Origin: Candidatus Thorarchaeota archaeon
Lineage (GTDB): Archaea; Asgardarchaeota; Thorarchaeia; Thorarchaeales; Thorarchaeaceae
Assembly: GCA_963726195.1 (NCBI GenBank)
Contig: CAVSBO010000004.1
Location: 351,723 to 415,722 of the forward strand
Direction: 5' to 3'
DNA length: 64,000 nt
In this document: piece by piece, positions 47,605-58,236 of the stretch
How positions within the stretch are numbered: the first letter of the stretch is position 1
Layout: each line of letters opens with the position of its first letter
Translations under genes and position numbers: made by a program
The notes under the pieces: model-generated
Databases searched by the model: none
The model's input: only the letters and a program-made list of their open reading frames with translations
Told to the model about the DNA's origin: nothing

Positions 47605-48486
47605 CTACCCTACCTTCTGCCCGCATTCAGGACAGAACTTGGCTCCCTTTAGTTCTGCTCCACAGTTAGGACAGAACTTGGTTCCCGCTGGTGCACCGCG
47701 TGCTGCTCCGCCACTCTGTGGTGATGCCATATTGCTGACTGCACCCATGAAGCCCATTCCTGCGCCGAAGCCGGCACCCGGACTCTTGCCGAGTGATTCA
47801 GCCGCGCTCTTCATGGTCTCCATTCCAGCGAGCTGGCCACCTTCAACCTTACCAGTCTTGAGCCAGAAGAGTCTGTCACGGAACTGGTCAGTGGTATCAA
47901 TTCCTTCGAACTTGAGGTCTACGAGTTCGAGCCCCAGCCGTTCGAAGTCCATCCGGACACCGGTCTTGACTTTCAAGGAAGTCTCGTCGAGCTGAGTGAA
48001 AACTGTCTGCAGGTCGTAATGGGCGAATTCGTCAATGATTTTCTCGTTCATGAATGAACGCAGGTAGTCATCAACCTTTGGAGTTGTGTAGGCGTTTTGG
48101 TTGCCCACGACCTCGTTTGTGAATATCTTCGGCTCTTTGATTCGGAACCAGAAGTTACCATGAAACATTAGCGGTGCAAGGTCTGAGGTCTGTCCTCTGC
48201 CGCCAAACTTGCCTTGGAACTGAGATCGCGACACGAAGACACAGGTCGCCTCGAAAACGTCGCCCTTGACCTTCTTCTGAAGATAGCCAAACAAACCTGG
48301 CATGGCGCTTGTTGTCAGCTTGAATCTCCCTGCGATGAAAGAGTCGAGTGCTTTTCCATCTCTATAGAAGATAGCAGCTTGATTCTCCATGACAACCAGC
48401 TGAGCGCCCCACTTTATTCGATTATCCGGGAAGCGCCAAACGATGTCGTCTGCGCTTGCATTGGTCCATTCGACTGCATCGGCCAT
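47605..48486 (-). CDS. SPFH (Band 7, YdjI-like) protein with C-terminal double zinc ribbon
   Basis: IVWRFP...QLVVMENQAAIFYRDGK, a Gly-rich linker and FCPNCG...FCPECG. Confidence 0.88.
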   Translation of the reverse strand: MADAVEWTNASADDIVWRFPDNRIKWGAQLVVMENQAAIFYRDGKALDSFIAGRFKLTTSAMPGLFGYLQKKVKGDVFEATCVFVSRSQFQGKFGGRGQTSDLAPLMFHGNFWFRIKEPKIFTNEVVGNQNAYTTPKVDDYLRSFMNEKIIDEFAHYDLQTVFTQLDETSLKVKTGVRMDFERLGLELVDLKFEGIDTTDQFRDRLFWLKTGKVEGGQLAGMETMKSAAESLGKSPGAGFGAGMGFMGAVSNMASPQSGGAARGAPAGTKFCPNCGAELKGAKFCPECGQKVG

Positions 48487-48714
48487 TTGTTGCACCCGTG
48501 TTTGGAATACTGCGGCCTATTGGGCTGTAATCTGTTTTAAAGATTGACATGCTCTGATTCGCAATCGCCCAGTTCAGCCCTCAGGTCGGTTGAGCACCAT
48601 TGGGTTCGTGTCCACTATATAAGGGGAAGCCCAACCGTCATCTATGAGGCCAGCTTCATCGGGGAACGAAGAGGAAACAGAGCAGATGGCACTCATCGTG
48701 CTGGAGGCGAGACA

Positions 48715-50126: not shown

Positions 50127-50687
50127 CTACTCCTGATAACCCTTCAAAAATCCATCACGCTGGTTCCACTTTTCCTCGAGGCGCTGCACAATCTGCCACA
50201 TTCTGTAGGTGTAGTCCCAAGCATCGTTGAACTTGCCTTGGTTCATCTTGTCGGTGAATTCCTCGACTACATCATTGATGGCACCGATGTCGTCAATTAT
50301 GACCGCATCGAACTGATACATTCTGTCGAGGGATTTGTTGCCGATTTTCTCTTTCGAGCCCCAAGACGAATAGCCATAGTCTGCATATCTTATGCCAGAC
50401 TCAATCTTGTCAGTCAGAGCGAGCATTCGGTCAAAGGTGTCATAGGTCTTCGTCAGATTGTAATCAACCATCATGCCCTGCAGCTTCTCGAGATCTTGTT
50501 TCACCATGCGGAGCTGGTCCGCAAGAAACTCACGAAGTACTTTGTCTGCGGCGCGGCGTTCTTCTTTCGATTGGTACCCGTGCCATCCGGGGATGTAATG
50601 GGTAATCATTCCGAAGAAGCCACCCTTGATGTCCTTGGCTGTTTTCTTTCTGATTCGTATAGCAATGGGTTCGGTTACTTTGCCCAA
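50127..50687 (-). CDS. Conserved alpha-helical hypothetical protein (IPGxxGY..KE.RR..D family)
   Basis: IPGWHGYQSKEERRAADKVLR and IRYADYGY motifs in a helical bundle. Confidence 0.75.
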   Translation of the reverse strand: MGKVTEPIAIRIRKKTAKDIKGGFFGMITHYIPGWHGYQSKEERRAADKVLREFLADQLRMVKQDLEKLQGMMVDYNLTKTYDTFDRMLALTDKIESGIRYADYGYSSWGSKEKIGNKSLDRMYQFDAVIIDDIGAINDVVEEFTDKMNQGKFNDAWDYTYRMWQIVQRLEEKWNQRDGFLKGYQE

Positions 50688-50896: not shown

Positions 50897-52102
50897 CTAC
50901 CAGAGCTGGTACTCGCGTTTTATGAAGCCCTTCCAGACGTAAGGTAGCTTCGCAATAACCTCTTCGCAGATGCTTTCGACGGAGCTCTTGACTGAGTTGA
51001 GATTGACGTTACCAAACAGTTCAATGTTAACTGCCTGCGGTTCCGTTATCGGGGCACCTATCTGGCTCACAACATAGCAATAGACCTGCTTCAACTCGGG
51101 ATACTCTTTTGCTATCCGGTCTACGATTTCCTTCGCGGCGACGTTGTAGGTCTTGCCGACATGTGAAACAGGGTTCTTACCTGCTGCGGCTTCAAGTGTC
51201 ATCGGCCTGTACGGAGTAATCAGACCATTGGCCCTGTTACCACGACCGACCTGACCATCATCACCGTGTTCGGCTGACGTGCCAGTCACGGTGAGATAGA
51301 ATAGACCCTTCTCCGGGTCATCCGCAGTGTTCACAGCAACGGTCACAGGCATCTCAGTAACCTTGGCCGCGTGGTCAATCAACAGGTCCTTCACCGTCTG
51401 CATAACGTTTGCATATTCATCGGCATCCCTTGTTTCCGTTGAAATCACGGCTACGGCCACCTGAAGGTGTATCTTCTTGCCCACTCGCGTACCCATGACT
51501 TTGATATCCTCACCAATCTGAGGCCACTTCTTCTTGACCGCGGGAGAATTCAGAAGCTGTTCAGATTCCAGAACGAGCTTTTCTGTCGCTGTCATAGGAG
51601 CATAGGCAACACCGAAGCTCGTGTCGTTCGACCTCGGGATTTCCACTCCTGCATCGAAGTTGCCAACCAGATCTGTGCTGCCAGCTCGTATCTTGTAGTC
51701 GATAATGAGATCCGAATTAACATCAAGATGAGGCAAGTCTTTGCTCATCCATTCACGTGTGTGTTCGACTGCGAATTTTCCCACCGGGACTTGGCGTGTG
51801 AAATCCTTACCAACGACATCCACGGCGCGGCCACTCATCAGAATGTATATCGGCTCGATTACGTCTCCTCCTCCAAAGTGAACGTTTGATAGGCCTCCTG
51901 CAAGGAGAACCTTGTCGACGTTGTGATGCTGGACTCTGCCAAATTCCTTGATGTAGTACTCGCTAAGGCGTATCGAAAGTTCTTCAGCAGCCTTGTCGCA
52001 GAGAGTGTCGGGATGGCCTTTGCCTTTCCTTTCGACTATCTCCACCTTTCGATCTGCTACGCAGATGCCTTCTCCTTTCGTGACTTCTAGATTCAGGCCC
52101 AT
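50897..52102 (-). CDS. mat: S-adenosylmethionine synthetase (archaeal type)
   Basis: [35 protein letters not shown] and [14 protein letters not shown]. Confidence 0.96.
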
Positions 52103-52226
52103 AAGGCTCAACTCACTTTCTTTTCGTCGTGCCCAGAGAGAGTTTCTTAAATAGCTTTGGATAGAGATTACTGCCAGTAATCGTTTTCTTTGAGAAGATG
52201 ACTGGTGAGAATCGGAGAAGAGCACC

Positions 52227-52763
52227 ATGATACTCACACCTGAGCTGGTAACTGCGATGAGACGACAAGCTGGCATGACACAAGGGGAACTTGCGCGCGC
52301 GGTGGGGGTATCGCAGTCGTACATAGCACGTATCGAGTCCGGCACTCTCGACCCGAAGCTCTCGGTCGCCAACAAGATCTTGGAGGTTCTAAGCGTACAG
52401 TCCGGCCCGACCCTAAGTGCTGTCATGACAGCCGACCCGACTACTGTTGACGCACGTGATTCTGTGGCCAGTGTCATCCCTGTGATGCAGGAGCGTGCCT
52501 TCTCTCAAATGCCAGTTGTAAGGAGCGGAAGAGTCGTCGGCATCATTACTGAACTCGATATTGTTCGCAATCTCAACCGCAATCTTGCTCAGGTCTCCGT
52601 GCAGGCAATCATGGATCCTGTTGCACCCCCAATGTTCGACGAGAACACGCCTCTAAGCTTCATCCTACCCCTGTTTGAATCGTTCCAAGCCGTACTCGTT
52701 CAGAAGCAAGGACGTCTGATTGGAGTTGTCACGAGAGCTGATGCCATGAAATCTGTGCACTGA
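52227..52763 (+). CDS. XRE-HTH plus CBS-pair transcriptional regulator (COG3620-like)
   Basis: RRQAGMTQGELARAVGVSQSYIARIESG followed by two CBS domains. Confidence 0.92.
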   Translation: MILTPELVTAMRRQAGMTQGELARAVGVSQSYIARIESGTLDPKLSVANKILEVLSVQSGPTLSAVMTADPTTVDARDSVASVIPVMQERAFSQMPVVRSGRVVGIITELDIVRNLNRNLAQVSVQAIMDPVAPPMFDENTPLSFILPLFESFQAVLVQKQGRLIGVVTRADAMKSVH

Positions 52764-52925
52764 AGCGCATATGGACAGATGAGAAGCGATTTGATAAGAC
52801 TTGGCGCGGAATTTCGTTGTTGACACGAGAATGATGGTGGCCCACCTGGAGTGCCCCTTTGTTTTCATGTCCTCGCAGGAGAGGTTATAAGTCGTCGAGC
52901 GAAGTTCGCATCGAAGGGAACGGAT

Positions 52926-53582
52926 TTGACTCAAGAACTCGAAGTCTTGGAAGATCTCCGCGAGGGCATCGACTCCTTTGTTGAGCGCTGGTCCAAGATA
53001 CAGAGGAACTCAGTCAAGTCCATTCAGGCAGTGACCAACACCCTTGTCCAGATTGAGCATCTCGACGGTCCTATGGGCAAGCTCGATGGTTTCAAGGACA
53101 TTAGGGAAAACGCTCGGGGAAAGCTCTTGGTCACGCTCTTCGACAAGCTCGTGCCATCTCTCGAGGCATCAATCAGGGAGTTCACCAAGCTGATGAAGAT
53201 GTTCGAGACTCTCAGACAGAAGGTTTCAAGCATCCAGACATTTGCTGAATCATTGAGAAGCGATGTTCAGGATTCGCCGGAACTCGAGGACCTCATTGGC
53301 TTCCTCGATCTTATTGTAATGAGCGTGCATGACATTCTGAACATGTTCGAGGCTGAGTTTCTGGTCAAGATAACAATCTACAACGATATCGAAGAAGGAG
53401 CGGCTGATGTAGGCATCATCAGCAACTATCTCACCATCTGGACTGCCGAGCCGAACATTGAACCGCACGCTCTGGAGAAGCTCCTGAAGGATCTTGATGA
53501 GCATTACGAGCTCCTTCGAGAGATATTCCAAGGCAAGACTGGCATCAGGATTCCGGATGTCTACAAGAATGTGACTTTCTGA
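52926..53582 (+). CDS. Helical-bundle protein resembling eukaryotic CINP/C1orf109
   Basis: C-terminal HDILNMFEAEFLVKITIYNDI...YLTIWTAEPNIE pattern. A TATA-like TTATAA lies at ~52885 upstream of the TTG start. Confidence 0.65.
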   Translation: MTQELEVLEDLREGIDSFVERWSKIQRNSVKSIQAVTNTLVQIEHLDGPMGKLDGFKDIRENARGKLLVTLFDKLVPSLEASIREFTKLMKMFETLRQKVSSIQTFAESLRSDVQDSPELEDLIGFLDLIVMSVHDILNMFEAEFLVKITIYNDIEEGAADVGIISNYLTIWTAEPNIEPHALEKLLKDLDEHYELLREIFQGKTGIRIPDVYKNVTF

Positions 53583-53673
53583 GCGTCCACAATCTTCTGA
53601 ACCATCATACTTAATTGCCTCGCCAGTCGGTCATGGACAACTCTGGCAGACGCGAGTTGCGAACGAGGAATTG

Positions 53674-54825
53674 ATGATGGCCGACAAGGACGAAGAGATG
53701 GTCGTGACCCCTTGGGAAGTCAGAGGAAAAATCGACTACGATCGTCTTATCGAGTTGTTTGGCACACAGAGAATCGACCAGAAGCTAAGAGAACGGATCT
53801 ACAAGGCTGCAGGTGAGAAGCACTTTCTGCTTGAGCGAGGGCTATTCTTTTCTCACAGAGACCTTGGTTGGCTACTTGATGAACATGCAAAGGGAAACCC
53901 GTTCTTCATCTACACGGGCCGGGGGCCCAGTGGCCACGTCCACATAGGCCATCTCATACCTTGGATGTTTACGAAGTGGCTACAAGACCGATTCAAGGCA
54001 CGCCTTTATTTTCAGTTGACAAATGACGAGAAGTTCTTCTTTGAGGAGGACTTGACAATCGAAGATGTACACCGATTTACTTACGAGAATTCCTTGGACC
54101 TTCTAGCGCTCGGCTTCAAACCTGACAATACCTTTCTGATTAATGACATCAAACACATTGACTTGCTGTATGAGCTCGGTGTACAAGTGGCCAAGAAGGT
54201 GACATTTTCCACTGCAAAGGCGGTCTATGGTTTTGAGAACTCGATGAATATTGGAGGCATCTGGTATCCTGCCCTTCAAGCAGTGCCTGCATTCCTGCAT
54301 TCTTGGATTGTCGGCAAGAACGTCCCTTGTCTGATTCCATGCGCCATAGATCAAGACCCTCATTGGAGAGTCACTCGGGATGTTGCGGACAAGCTGGGTT
54401 ACTACAAACCTGCTTCAATCCAGAACAAGTTTGTCCCCGGTCTGGGCGAAGGTGGAAAGATGTCTTCTTCCGATCCAATGTCAGCCATCTTCACAACTGA
54501 CAAGCCCAAGTTGGCTCGGAAGAAAGTGATGAACGCATTCACGGGTGGCAGGACTACAGCTGAGGAACAAAGGAAACTAGGCGCGAACCCCGACGTCTGT
54601 TCGGTCTTCAAGTACTACGCTTTCATATTCATGCCTGACGATAAAGAGCTTGCAGACATCGAAAGCAAATGCAGAAGCGGCGAGATTCTCTGTGGAGAAT
54701 GCAAGCAGATACTCGCACCAAGGATGGCCGAATTCTTGGAGCGCCATCAGGCCGCACGAGAAGAGGTGAAGGATCGGGTGGAGGAATTCTCGGCGGCGCG
54801 GCTTAGGGACGAAATAAGAAGGTAA
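53674..54825 (+). CDS. trpS: Tryptophan--tRNA ligase (archaeal/eukaryotic type)
   Basis: VTPWEV, YTGRGPS, HIGH, AIDQDP, KMSSS and CGECK. Confidence 0.97.
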   Translation: MMADKDEEMVVTPWEVRGKIDYDRLIELFGTQRIDQKLRERIYKAAGEKHFLLERGLFFSHRDLGWLLDEHAKGNPFFIYTGRGPSGHVHIGHLIPWMFTKWLQDRFKARLYFQLTNDEKFFFEEDLTIEDVHRFTYENSLDLLALGFKPDNTFLINDIKHIDLLYELGVQVAKKVTFSTAKAVYGFENSMNIGGIWYPALQAVPAFLHSWIVGKNVPCLIPCAIDQDPHWRVTRDVADKLGYYKPASIQNKFVPGLGEGGKMSSSDPMSAIFTTDKPKLARKKVMNAFTGGRTTAEEQRKLGANPDVCSVFKYYAFIFMPDDKELADIESKCRSGEILCGECKQILAPRMAEFLERHQAAREEVKDRVEEFSAARLRDEIRR

Positions 54826-55020
54826 GGCGGTCAGCAGTTCCGGGCTTGTCGATGTGAGTCCGGTCGCAGTCTATTCTGTTAGGTTAGCTTCACAAGAAAC
54901 GCTACTTAGAGAAGTCACTGTACGAAACGTAGTGTAGTTTTATTAAGGGCGTATGAGAGCAGACGTACCGGACATGCGTGACACGATATTGTCCGATCGC
55001 AAAGCGTGGAGAACTTGAAA

Positions 55021-56049
55021 ATGGGGACAGAAACAGAGATAGCGGACATTTTCAAATGCCCGGTCTGCAACGGCAACGTACGAATCGGTCCCGATGATGT
55101 GGTCATCACTTGCACTTACTGCGGTAGCACTACGACCATAGAAGGCAAGGCAATTGGAGATCATCTCATGGAATTGGCCATAGCTGACAAGGAGCGAATA
55201 GAAGGACTTCGCGCCTACCTTGGCAAGCACAAGGGAGTGAACAAGGCCCTCGTGCAAGGCGCGGAGATTGTCGAGAACAACTTGATTTTCGTTCCAGTCT
55301 GGACGTCCAAAGTCAAAGCCGATACTTGGTACAAGGGTTACAAGACTGTGTCAGTTCCGGTAGAGCGAACGAGGATGGTGACGGATTCTCAAGGACACAG
55401 CCACACGGAAACCTATACCGAGTACGAGACTGGTTACGTGCCAGTACAGAGCGAGATTCATTCAGACACTGATGAGCCTCTCTTGGCGAGGAAGGGCTCT
55501 CATTTCTACGGTTTGGAACAGTACCTCAAGACGATTAACGTGAACGACACTCAGCGATACGACTTCGAGAAGATTAAGGATCTCAATCCCATAATGCTCA
55601 ATGCTGAGATCGGGGCTGATGAGTACGAGGGGACGATTAGCGGTGTGGTCGCTGACAGGCATAGAGCAGAGGCCCAGCATAACGTCAAAGAGCTGTTCGA
55701 TTGCAACACGACGACAAACGTGCGAGGAACTACTTACCTTCAGGCACCGTTTGCGCTCATTCGATACAAGTTCGGTGGTGGTCTTTTCAAATGCGCCATG
55801 GACGGACACGCCGGCAAGGTGCTTATCGGAGAAATTCCAATCACCCGGGAGCAAAGAGCTTTATGGGCACTGCTCGGCTTTTTTGGAATCATCGTAGCCG
55901 GTGTCGGTGGTGAATTCTTCTACCAAGGATATCTGAACAACGTGGCCAATCTTCTAATAGGAGGCATAGCGGCCATTGTGTTAGGAATCGTAATGACGAT
56001 TCTCGGCGTCAGGATACTTGTCATGCCCGAGCGAGAGGAGAAGGGGTGA
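55021..56049 (+). CDS. Zinc-ribbon membrane protein, YdjG-like
   Basis: CPVC...CTYC, FVPVW, a P-x-x-x-x-x-Y...DG.G..GE.P motif and two C-terminal TM helices. Confidence 0.75.
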   Translation: MGTETEIADIFKCPVCNGNVRIGPDDVVITCTYCGSTTTIEGKAIGDHLMELAIADKERIEGLRAYLGKHKGVNKALVQGAEIVENNLIFVPVWTSKVKADTWYKGYKTVSVPVERTRMVTDSQGHSHTETYTEYETGYVPVQSEIHSDTDEPLLARKGSHFYGLEQYLKTINVNDTQRYDFEKIKDLNPIMLNAEIGADEYEGTISGVVADRHRAEAQHNVKELFDCNTTTNVRGTTYLQAPFALIRYKFGGGLFKCAMDGHAGKVLIGEIPITREQRALWALLGFFGIIVAGVGGEFFYQGYLNNVANLLIGGIAAIVLGIVMTILGVRILVMPEREEKG

Positions 56050-56054
56050 GAAAG

Positions 56055-57037
56055 ATGACGAAGTGTGCGTTTTGCGGTGGTGACATCAAAGCAGGGCCTG
56101 ACGACCTTCTGCTGATATGCCCATTCTGCGGCACGGCACAGACAGTTCAGGGTGCCAACTCAAGGAGCATTACATGATTCGTGTTCACTTCGATCAGAAT
56201 AAAGCCTACACAACGCTGACAGATTGGGTCTCAAAGCAAATCGGTGTGCCACGTGATCTTGGAGCGAATGCTCACATGCTCAAGGCGGAGCAAGTCTGGT
56301 ACCCGTTCTGGGTGAGTCGTGTCGATGCTCATTCCTCCTACAATGGCCTAGGCCGTGATGCAACGTTTCACGACGAATGGCCGCAGTATCGCGGCGCGTA
56401 CAAGAGAATCAACTTCTTCTGGAAACCTGAGTCGGGCGAGGTCACGAGAGACTACGAGATCAAGTCACCTGCTGTGGCGGAGATTGACCAAGACATAAAA
56501 TCGATGGCGATTCCAACAAGGGCAAAGGAATACTTCAGTCATGACCAAGCCGCTCAGTACGGTGGCAGCGTTCTCAATAGCCAAGTGTCTGAGGAAGGTG
56601 CTAAAGCGACTGCGAAGCAGATTGCACTTGACAAACAGACTGCTCTAATCATGCAACATGCGCCGAAGATTGAGTCCAGAAACGACCAGATTGACGTGGG
56701 TGATACATTTCTCGTTCATGTTCCAGTTTGGCAGATCCAATACCGGTACGGTAGCAGGAGCTACAAGGCCTCAGTGTCTGCGTCGACTGGATACGTTATT
56801 GAGAGTGAGTATCCGCGCTCAGCAGCGTTCAGGGCGATGGGGCTCGGACTTGGGTTCTTTCTGCTGGTCATTGGTGCTGGTCTGTTGGCACTTGGTCTTG
56901 GTCTCGTACACATACCTGTCGTACCAGAGGGGGTCCTTGTGGGCGGAGGTATTGTGACAGGAGGCATGCTTACAGCAGTCGGTCTCCTCTTCATGTACAA
57001 GGGAGCATCCAAGAAGGAAGCCAAGGAGAAGGAGTAG
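56055..57037 (+). CDS. Zinc-ribbon membrane protein, YdjG-like paralog; frameshift at ~56157
   Basis: MTKCAFCGG...CPFCG in the upstream frame joins LKEHYMI. Also WYPFW, HVPVWQIQY and two TM helices. Confidence 0.75.
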
Positions 57038-57075: not shown

Positions 57076-58236
57076 CTAGACGGAGACAGTGGGGGTTGGT
57101 ATAGGTGCCCAGACATCTTCGAGCCCTACGCGAGAGGGTATCGGCGATTCGCGGGCTACTGCTCTGAGTTCCGGAGTCAGAATAGAGTTCAGGATGCGGG
57201 ACATGTTTGCTCTGGTATCCAACAGAATGGGGTCGGATTCTACTGCTTCGTCCACACCTGCCCTGACTAGCCAAGGTCCCAGCAGTTGGTTTAGCTGCCC
57301 TCGAGAGTGGTGGAAGACTACGACATGGGAATTGGCCTTCTGTTTGGTCAGGTACTGGTACGCTGAGAACCGTGCATGGTCTGCATAGATTGACGTCTTT
57401 GGATCGGTCGTGGGATGCCGTGGGTCTTCCAGACTATAGCCGCCTGACTGAGACCCGTTTCCTGTTTCCGCCCTAAGGTAGTCCACTCTCGGGTCCCCTG
57501 GCTCGAGCAGGACCACGAAAGTGTCTCCATACAGACTTGCAGTGTGAATAGCATAAGTGTCAGATGAGGCTCTTTCGACAATATCCATGAGCGCATTGCT
57601 GACGTAGGCGTCGATTGCCGCTTTGTAGGCTCCCCTGAGGGGTACGAATCTTCTGCTGTTGAGCTTACCCAGAAGACCCACAGACAACAAGCGGGCAACT
57701 TGGTCAAGCGTGTAGTCGTAGTCAAGGAGCTGACAGATGCCCTCGGATGCAGGGATGTCTTTCCCTGTAATTCTCTCTGCGACCTTGGTAATCTCAGGCT
57801 CGGAGAGGACTTCAATTGACTTGACGGTAACTGACGGGCTGGATGGGAGCAGGGCAGGTTGGGTCTGAATTCTGACGGGGGGAATGTCCCCTGCTTCAAC
57901 GCGGATTGCAACTGGCCTGACAGAAAGAGCTATTGTCTGGAGAGCACGAACAGTGTCTGCGGGATACATCTCTCGGGCGTTTATCGGTGTGACGAATCGA
58001 TACAGGGAGCGTCTCATTGTGATGACCGCTTCGCGGTCTAGGCCTTTCCAAGCTCCGGGATGATCGTAAATGGAAAGGTGTTCCGAAGCATCTGTGGAAG
58101 CAAGAACGCCCGCGAGTACGTAAGGATACTTGGCGGGCTCAACACAAATACCCGGGGGACTGAAGACTGTGAGAGGCTTCCTCGCTGGCGTTTGAACCAG
58201 TTGAACTTGGGTGGTCATTACTTGTCCAATCGACAT
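57076..58236 (-). CDS. Nre (NreA-like) archaeal DNA repair protein, divergent
   Basis: SPPGICV..KYPYV, DHPGAW, LLSVGLLG...RRFVP.R...AID and LGPWLVRAGV resemble Nre_N/Nre_C. Confidence 0.68.
   Translation of the reverse strand: MSIGQVMTTQVQLVQTPARKPLTVFSPPGICVEPAKYPYVLAGVLASTDASEHLSIYDHPGAWKGLDREAVITMRRSLYRFVTPINAREMYPADTVRALQTIALSVRPVAIRVEAGDIPPVRIQTQPALLPSSPSVTVKSIEVLSEPEITKVAERITGKDIPASEGICQLLDYDYTLDQVARLLSVGLLGKLNSRRFVPLRGAYKAAIDAYVSNALMDIVERASSDTYAIHTASLYGDTFVVLLEPGDPRVDYLRAETGNGSQSGGYSLEDPRHPTTDPKTSIYADHARFSAYQYLTKQKANSHVVVFHHSRGQLNQLLGPWLVRAGVDEAVESDPILLDTRANMSRILNSILTPELRAVARESPIPSRVGLEDVWAPIPTPTVSV

Follow-up and report, generated by a model that had tools for sequence, protein, structure and literature searches.

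A gene in the window, a stretch of 64,000 nucleotides of a Candidatus Thorarchaeota contig, almost certainly belongs to a conserved, single-copy Asgard family of helical-bundle proteins with full-length homology to CINP as well as C1orf109. In humans these two small helical proteins are the lid subunits of a ribosome-maturing ATPase, the SPATA5-SPATA5L1-C1orf109-CINP complex (55LCC). Asgard homologues of CINP have been published before, and the gene itself, referred to below as CINPL (CINP/C1orf109-like; Table 1), is not news. According to Koestlbacher et al. (bioRxiv 10.1101/2024.07.03.601958; Nat Microbiol 2026, PMC12962969, Fig. 4h), CINP homologues occur among prokaryotes only in five major Asgard clades, and the eukaryotic sequences group with Hodarchaeales. 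The initial annotation, which regarded the family as eukaryotic, is out of date in this respect. Both studies find a full-length CINP homologue by profile and structure that is patchily distributed across several Asgard clades. In that available text, however, Thorarchaeia are not named, C1orf109 is not discussed as a co-descendant and no archaeal partner is proposed; our literature searches also found no paper that links Asgard Cdc48 to Drg1 or discusses the CINP/C1orf109 duplication. The additions made here are modest and consist of the co-ancestry of C1orf109, the presence of both interface halves on one chain, and the absence of the human docking partners.

Table 1. Coordinates of CINPL, its sequence elements and adjacent genes in the window.
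Feature	Position	Strand	Basis and remarks
Archaeal AdoMet synthetase, neighbour	50897..52165	-	Pfam; synteny in Thorarchaeia only
HTH-CBS regulator, upstream neighbour	52227..52763	+	Pfam; synteny in Thorarchaeia only
Archaeal promoter-like element (purine-rich BRE-like stretch and TATA box)	52874..52891	+	Sequence and conservation; putative function
CINPL gene	52926..53582	+	218 aa, TTG start, helical bundle; open frame, Pfam, PDB, profile and structure matches
Codon for W22, helix-1 Trp common to the CINP and C1orf109 families	52989..52991	+	Alignments
Helix 1-helix 2 loop, residues 51-67 (G-x-L-x-x-F-x-x-I)	53076..53126	+	L53/I59/A63 align with the CINP-binding C1orf109 L63/L69/L73
C-terminal signature, residues 140-179 (M-x-E-x-E ... 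Y-L-T-I-W-x-x-E-P)	53343..53462	+	Alignments
Class I (W/Y) tRNA synthetase, probably TrpRS, downstream neighbour	53671..54825	+	Adjacent in some Thorarchaeia

The description of CINPL as an all-helical ORF of about 218 residues with its own TATA-like box holds. The frame has 218 open codons from the TTG, with which the starts of homologues coincide (lengths mostly 218-219 aa), and the AlphaFold (AF2) model is an all-helical bundle (pLDDT 88). A GTG start at 52851 was ruled out, as both the homologue starts and the TATA position favour the TTG. The TATA-like element itself (TTATAAG, 52885-52891) follows the BRE-like purine-rich stretch, and its sequence and distance to the gene are kept in most of about 30 thorarchaeal loci examined. 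Because of this constant spacing, CINPL is probably transcribed from a promoter of its own, and the longer GTG frame probably goes unused, as judged from the sequence. A sigma-70 promoter scan, whose model is irrelevant for archaea, gave nothing above chance. Among 5.8 billion proteins searched, 147 homologues were found; identity among the 120 listed ranges from 67 to 99%, and the named homologues among the matches listed are nearly all from Thorarchaeota.

Searched as a single sequence, CINPL has CINP as its four best PDB matches (E 0.03-0.06) and the C1orf109-like family PF15011 as its best Pfam match (E 1e-4), at 22.6 bits against a gathering threshold of 27. The relationship becomes distinct with a profile of 25 aligned Asgard members, which include distant ones gathered from whole genomes. 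This profile matches human CINP in the PDB at E 3e-9 over 177 positions (profile positions 8-184) and human C1orf109 weakly (E 0.08), and PF15011 (CA109-like) in turn matches 23 of the 25 members (best E 1.7e-14). Run against 1.84 billion representatives, the Asgard profile retrieved Asgard proteins ahead of eukaryotic proteins, some of which are named CINP or C1orf109/AIRIM; the named matches are all Asgard or eukaryotic, among representatives of which many are nameless and with the systematic genome search confined to Asgard archaea. A reciprocal C1orf109 profile finds the CINPL gene at E 9e-19. HH profile-profile comparisons gave 1e-26 for Asgard versus CINP and 1e-23 for Asgard versus C1orf109, which equals or exceeds the 3e-21 for CINP versus C1orf109; these scores are inflated since the eukaryotic sequences were chosen by the Asgard profile. 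The best natural structural matches of the model are likewise CINP and C1orf109, both with Foldseek (TM 0.64 and 0.63; E only 2e-3) and with VIA (Z 14.7, rmsd 3.1 over 170 residues, and Z 13.7). A de novo designed bundle, however, reaches Z 13.8, less than one Z unit below CINP, and the fold alone is therefore not decisive; the sequence evidence carries the argument for homology. A chance likeness of generic helical bundles or coiled coils might account for the weak single-sequence and Foldseek E-values and for the score of the designed bundle, yet it is refuted by the whole-length profile match, the large-database, profile-profile and reciprocal searches and the non-heptad residues in common (W, M-x-E-x-E, W-x-x-E/Q-P), so that its probability is negligible. 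Thus, the resemblance to CINP and C1orf109 proposed by the initial annotation, whose quoted archaeal motifs are all present in the ORF and whose human sequences agree with the PDB chains, is a significant match in profile and structure and not merely a generic coiled-coil similarity.

The similarities are distributed over both human proteins. Human CINP (PDB 8CIH, 8RHN, 9LGO, 9GWJ) shares with CINPL about 17% identity, the helical fold, the helix-1 Trp and a C-terminal motif, M..E..K / Y-L-x-x-W-x-x-[QE]-P. The CINP-type form of the latter, Y-L-x-x-W-x-x-Q-P, appears in CINPL as Y168-L169-T170-I171-W172-x-x-E175-P176, with E in place of Q. Across 122 Asgard sequences W172, E175 and P176 are nearly invariant and Y168 and L169 highly conserved, so that the YLxxWxxxP motif is conserved in these archaeal homologues. 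The archaeal protein differs from CINP in keeping a C1orf109-type loop that human CINP has lost, in lacking the basic N-terminal extension of CINP and in having an extra C-terminal tail. With human C1orf109/AIRIM (PF15011) it shares the fold, the L-x-x-F-x-x-[LI] part of the helix 1-2 loop and the lysine/leucine pattern of helix 2, whereas the C-terminal Trp motif kept in CINPL is degraded in C1orf109.

Within Asgard archaea, the profile finds a match in 120 of 301 genomes, with essentially one gene in each. CINPL is present in 71 of the 76 genomes of its own family and in seven other families, and was not found by profile in several large Asgard families (0/68, 0/28, 0/11 and 0/11); the family labels used here are tied partly to names (Thorarchaeota, Sifarchaeum, Asgardarchaeia, Hodarchaeota). 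The eukaryotic C1orf109 profile picks out the very Asgard genomes that the Asgard profile does, and in each of them no gene besides CINPL. Weak single-query matches in three further families (f5, f9 and f14) disappeared with the profile and were taken as coiled-coil noise. In family f16 (L044-L046) and in one thorarchaeal genus (G075, G170), an in-frame insertion of about 30-40 residues lies between the long helices 3 and 4. Outside the 301-genome sample, MAG GCA_048938655.1 contains two divergent family members, one of 225 aa (L139:8001-8678) and one of 195 aa with a shortened helix 1 (L143:8001-8588). Both fall among Hodarchaeal-type sequences, which points to a separate duplication or else to a mixed bin; a real duplication would parallel the eukaryotic CINP/C1orf109 split. 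A long-branch member (P0153, L144:1984-2592) on a 2.6-kb Logan contig from SRR11241200 is preceded by six short co-oriented hypothetical ORFs of membrane and zinc-ribbon types, a layout resembling that of a virus or mobile element. No hallmark gene was seen on these 2.6 kb, searches of viral contigs with the thorarchaeal alignment and the divergent P0153 gave no relatives, and no further P0153 loci were found in metagenomes. Among eukaryotes, a chytrid protein annotated as MutS msh5 (P0158, KAJ3088950.1) starts with a full CINP-like domain (residues 9-197), which represents either a fusion or a gene-model merge.

In a tree of 109 sequences, the family falls into three parts, namely the Asgard members, a CINP group and a C1orf109 group, of which the eukaryotic groups were identified against the PDB (CINP/C1orf109 at E 1e-47 and 1e-24). 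A mixture-model tree of 70 sequences supports the three parts at 99/93 (Asgard), 97/75 (CINP) and 97/91 (C1orf109) and places the Asgard members on their own side, outside the CINP clade and outside the C1orf109 group. Diverse eukaryotes are included in both paralogue groups. Because each archaeal genome has one gene and both paralogues are spread across eukaryotes, the simplest scenario is a duplication on the eukaryotic stem. CINPL is thus probably a descendant of the gene that existed before this duplication, and the two eukaryotic paralogues would go back to that gene and have separated before the last eukaryotic common ancestor. This reading is limited by a tree without an outgroup, whose eukaryotic sample was picked by the Asgard profile. 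A single Asgard ancestor of both adaptors had been proposed by the initial annotation, and the single copy and separate branch make this the best-supported reading, short of proof. The Hodarchaeal sisterhood reported by Koestlbacher et al. is not resolved in the present tree, and AU tests rejected neither a clade of CINP with the Hodarchaeal-type sequences (p 0.18) nor one of C1orf109 with them (p 0.19). Alternatively, CINPL might be an orthologue of CINP only, with C1orf109 as a paralogue of separate origin that is masked by its greater age or faster evolution. The direct profile scores, which favour human CINP over human C1orf109, the CINP-like C-terminal Trp motif and a midpoint root among the C1orf109 sequences would be in line with this alternative, as would the treatment of the family as CINP in the published work. 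It is unlikely, however, since the second paralogue must then have been lost in all Asgard lineages searched, where the C1orf109 profile recovers the one gene alone; moreover, the N-terminal half of CINPL matches PF15011 and the C1orf109 loop, and the structural scores to both human proteins are tied.

In the human complex, the helix 1-2 loop of C1orf109 (L63, L69, L73) packs on CINP to form a T-shaped dimer, two of these dimers form a funnel held by the N-domains of SPATA5/SPATA5L1, and CINP and C1orf109 are each monomeric alone (PMC11055677; for the N-domain binding also PMC12019325). Mutagenesis (PMC11055677) is the source of the interface residues, which comprise the three loop leucines and CINP L162/S181/S184, the latter needed for complex formation. 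V147/N167/T170 of CINPL are the aligned equivalents of these CINP residues, not identities, and adjoin the nearly invariant W172, E175 and P176. On the loop side, L53 and I59 are conserved in the 122 Asgard sequences, and the third position (equivalent to L73) is small (A/T/S) in Thorarchaeia and mostly Leu in other Asgard archaea. The SPATA5-contacting E147 of CINP is not conserved (M132 in CINPL). The alignments suggest that the two halves of the interface in the human heterodimer are combined on one archaeal chain, as in a self-associating adaptor that predates the duplication. It would combine a C1orf109-type donor loop (L53/F56/I59) with a CINP-type acceptor groove (V147/N167/T170, beside W172-E175-P176). 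Since both surfaces would lie on the same chain, CINPL may associate with itself head to side, T-shaped like the human heterodimer, to give a homodimer or a small ring.

The genome contains two full-length Cdc48 genes, on contigs C16 (55813-58005) and C4 (264650-266836), and both match VAT and p97 best, not SPATA5. The C16 copy scores 621 bits against human AFG2A and 635 against p97, the C4 copy 599 and 671; the C16 copy is thus only slightly nearer to human AFG2A, and for yeast Drg1 the C4 copy scores better. AFG2 orthology is judged here from these scores. The N-domain of the C16 Cdc48 (L053:4814-7006) is very conserved (82-93% among Thorarchaeia), and the gene adjoins genes that, judged by sequence motifs, are FEN1-like, RPA/OB-fold-like and eIF2-beta-like. 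The N-domain of the C4 copy (L054:5151-7337) is more variable, and this gene lies beside Hsp20-like and zinc-finger/M50-protease-like genes. Two other Asgard Cdc48 genes (G025:C47:3860 and G211:C9:116707) have frames of about 1240 aa instead of the usual 740 or so, which suggests a large insertion such as an intein. Among the matches listed, members of the C16-type clade come from seven of the eight CINPL-bearing families and also from families without CINPL, and no Cdc48 paralogue clade tracks the presence of CINPL (74 further matches exist). Cdc48 N-domains occur in all 70 of 70 Asgard genomes, including families without CINPL, and no Cdc48 gene lies near CINPL in about 58 loci that cover all CINPL-bearing families. 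A predicted complex of two CINPL copies with the N-domain of the C16 paralogue scored 0.08 against a mark of 0.32 and gave no answer in either direction. Thus, the Cdc48/AFG2-like partnership put forward in the initial annotation finds no support in gene neighbourhood or co-distribution, no AFG2-specific orthologue was identified, and the partnership would be an extrapolation from the human complex only. In that complex, CINP docks on residues 452-474 of GTPBP4 and helps to extract RLP24. The Nog1 of the CINPL genome has 346 aa (in 24 Asgard genomes its open frames span 229-462), and Rlp24 is absent from 26 of 26 Asgard genomes, each of which has one short L24e. The archaeal protein has therefore neither the GTPBP4 tail nor Rlp24 to bind, and the function of CINP at the human ribosome cannot be transferred to it without change.

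A lid homologue and Cdc48-family ATPases of N-D1-D2 architecture coexist in one genome, as in 55LCC (PMC11055677, PMC12019325). The latter has two lid genes whose products form a heterodimer, whereas the archaeon has one lid gene by both profiles, VAT/p97-like ATPases, no Rlp24 and no long Nog1 tail. A CINPL ring could rest on the N-domains of a hexameric Cdc48/VAT and serve as a funnel for substrates, though not an essential one; of the two paralogues, the widespread one on contig C16 would be the better candidate, and the substrate would be other than Rlp24. A bolder and rather doubtful reading is a 'proto-55LCC', an ordinary Cdc48/VAT homohexamer capped by a ring in which copies of a single CINP/C1orf109 ancestor associate with one another. 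On this reading CINPL would serve archaeal Cdc48 as a dedicated N-domain adaptor, and duplication of both lid and motor would have given rise to the eukaryotic 4:2:2:2 machine. The whole chain of homology, pre-duplication ancestry, self-association and a Cdc48 ATPase step can be put forward only tentatively. With the same ancestry CINPL might instead have another job. As a helical adaptor or scaffold that associates with itself, it might serve a partner other than Cdc48, for example in translation, replication or the assembly of ribosomes, and recruitment to an AFG2 ATPase would then have taken place only on the eukaryotic stem. This is quite possible. In its favour are the patchiness of CINPL beside a universal Cdc48, the lack of synteny with Cdc48, of a clear SPATA5/SPATA5L1 orthologue and of the human docking partners, and the mapping of the best-conserved residues to the self or heterodimer interface. 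However, the one role that structures have established for either eukaryotic paralogue is exercised on Cdc48-type N-domains, and the neighbourhoods differ in every lineage and point to no alternative partner; our best guess places an adaptor on Cdc48 barely ahead. Should both lids descend from the single archaeal gene and its product self-associate on Cdc48, the two proteins would provide a minimal model for the origin of the asymmetric 55LCC, which in humans is mutated in neurodevelopmental disease. The adaptor-free state of yeast Drg1 would then represent a loss, and CINP would not be a human-specific factor.

In Thorarchaeia the gene order is AdoMet synthetase, HTH-CBS gene and CINPL, often followed by the tRNA synthetase. 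Outside this group the neighbours differ between lineages, and synteny provides no functional clue. In the loci of family f12 (L034-L036), CINPL is flanked by three phosphohexomutase-like genes and one nucleotidyltransferase-like gene, recognised by their N-terminal motifs, with an eS26-like ORF nearby. Elsewhere in the window, the minus strand carries a gene for an SPFH/Band 7 protein with a zinc ribbon (47605-48495) and one for a helical protein without family (50127-50687). Downstream of the tRNA synthetase, a tandem pair of membrane proteins, of which the first has a zinc ribbon, is encoded on the plus strand (55006-57037), followed on the minus strand by an archaeal Nre DNA-repair protein (57076-58236; PF04894/PF04895).
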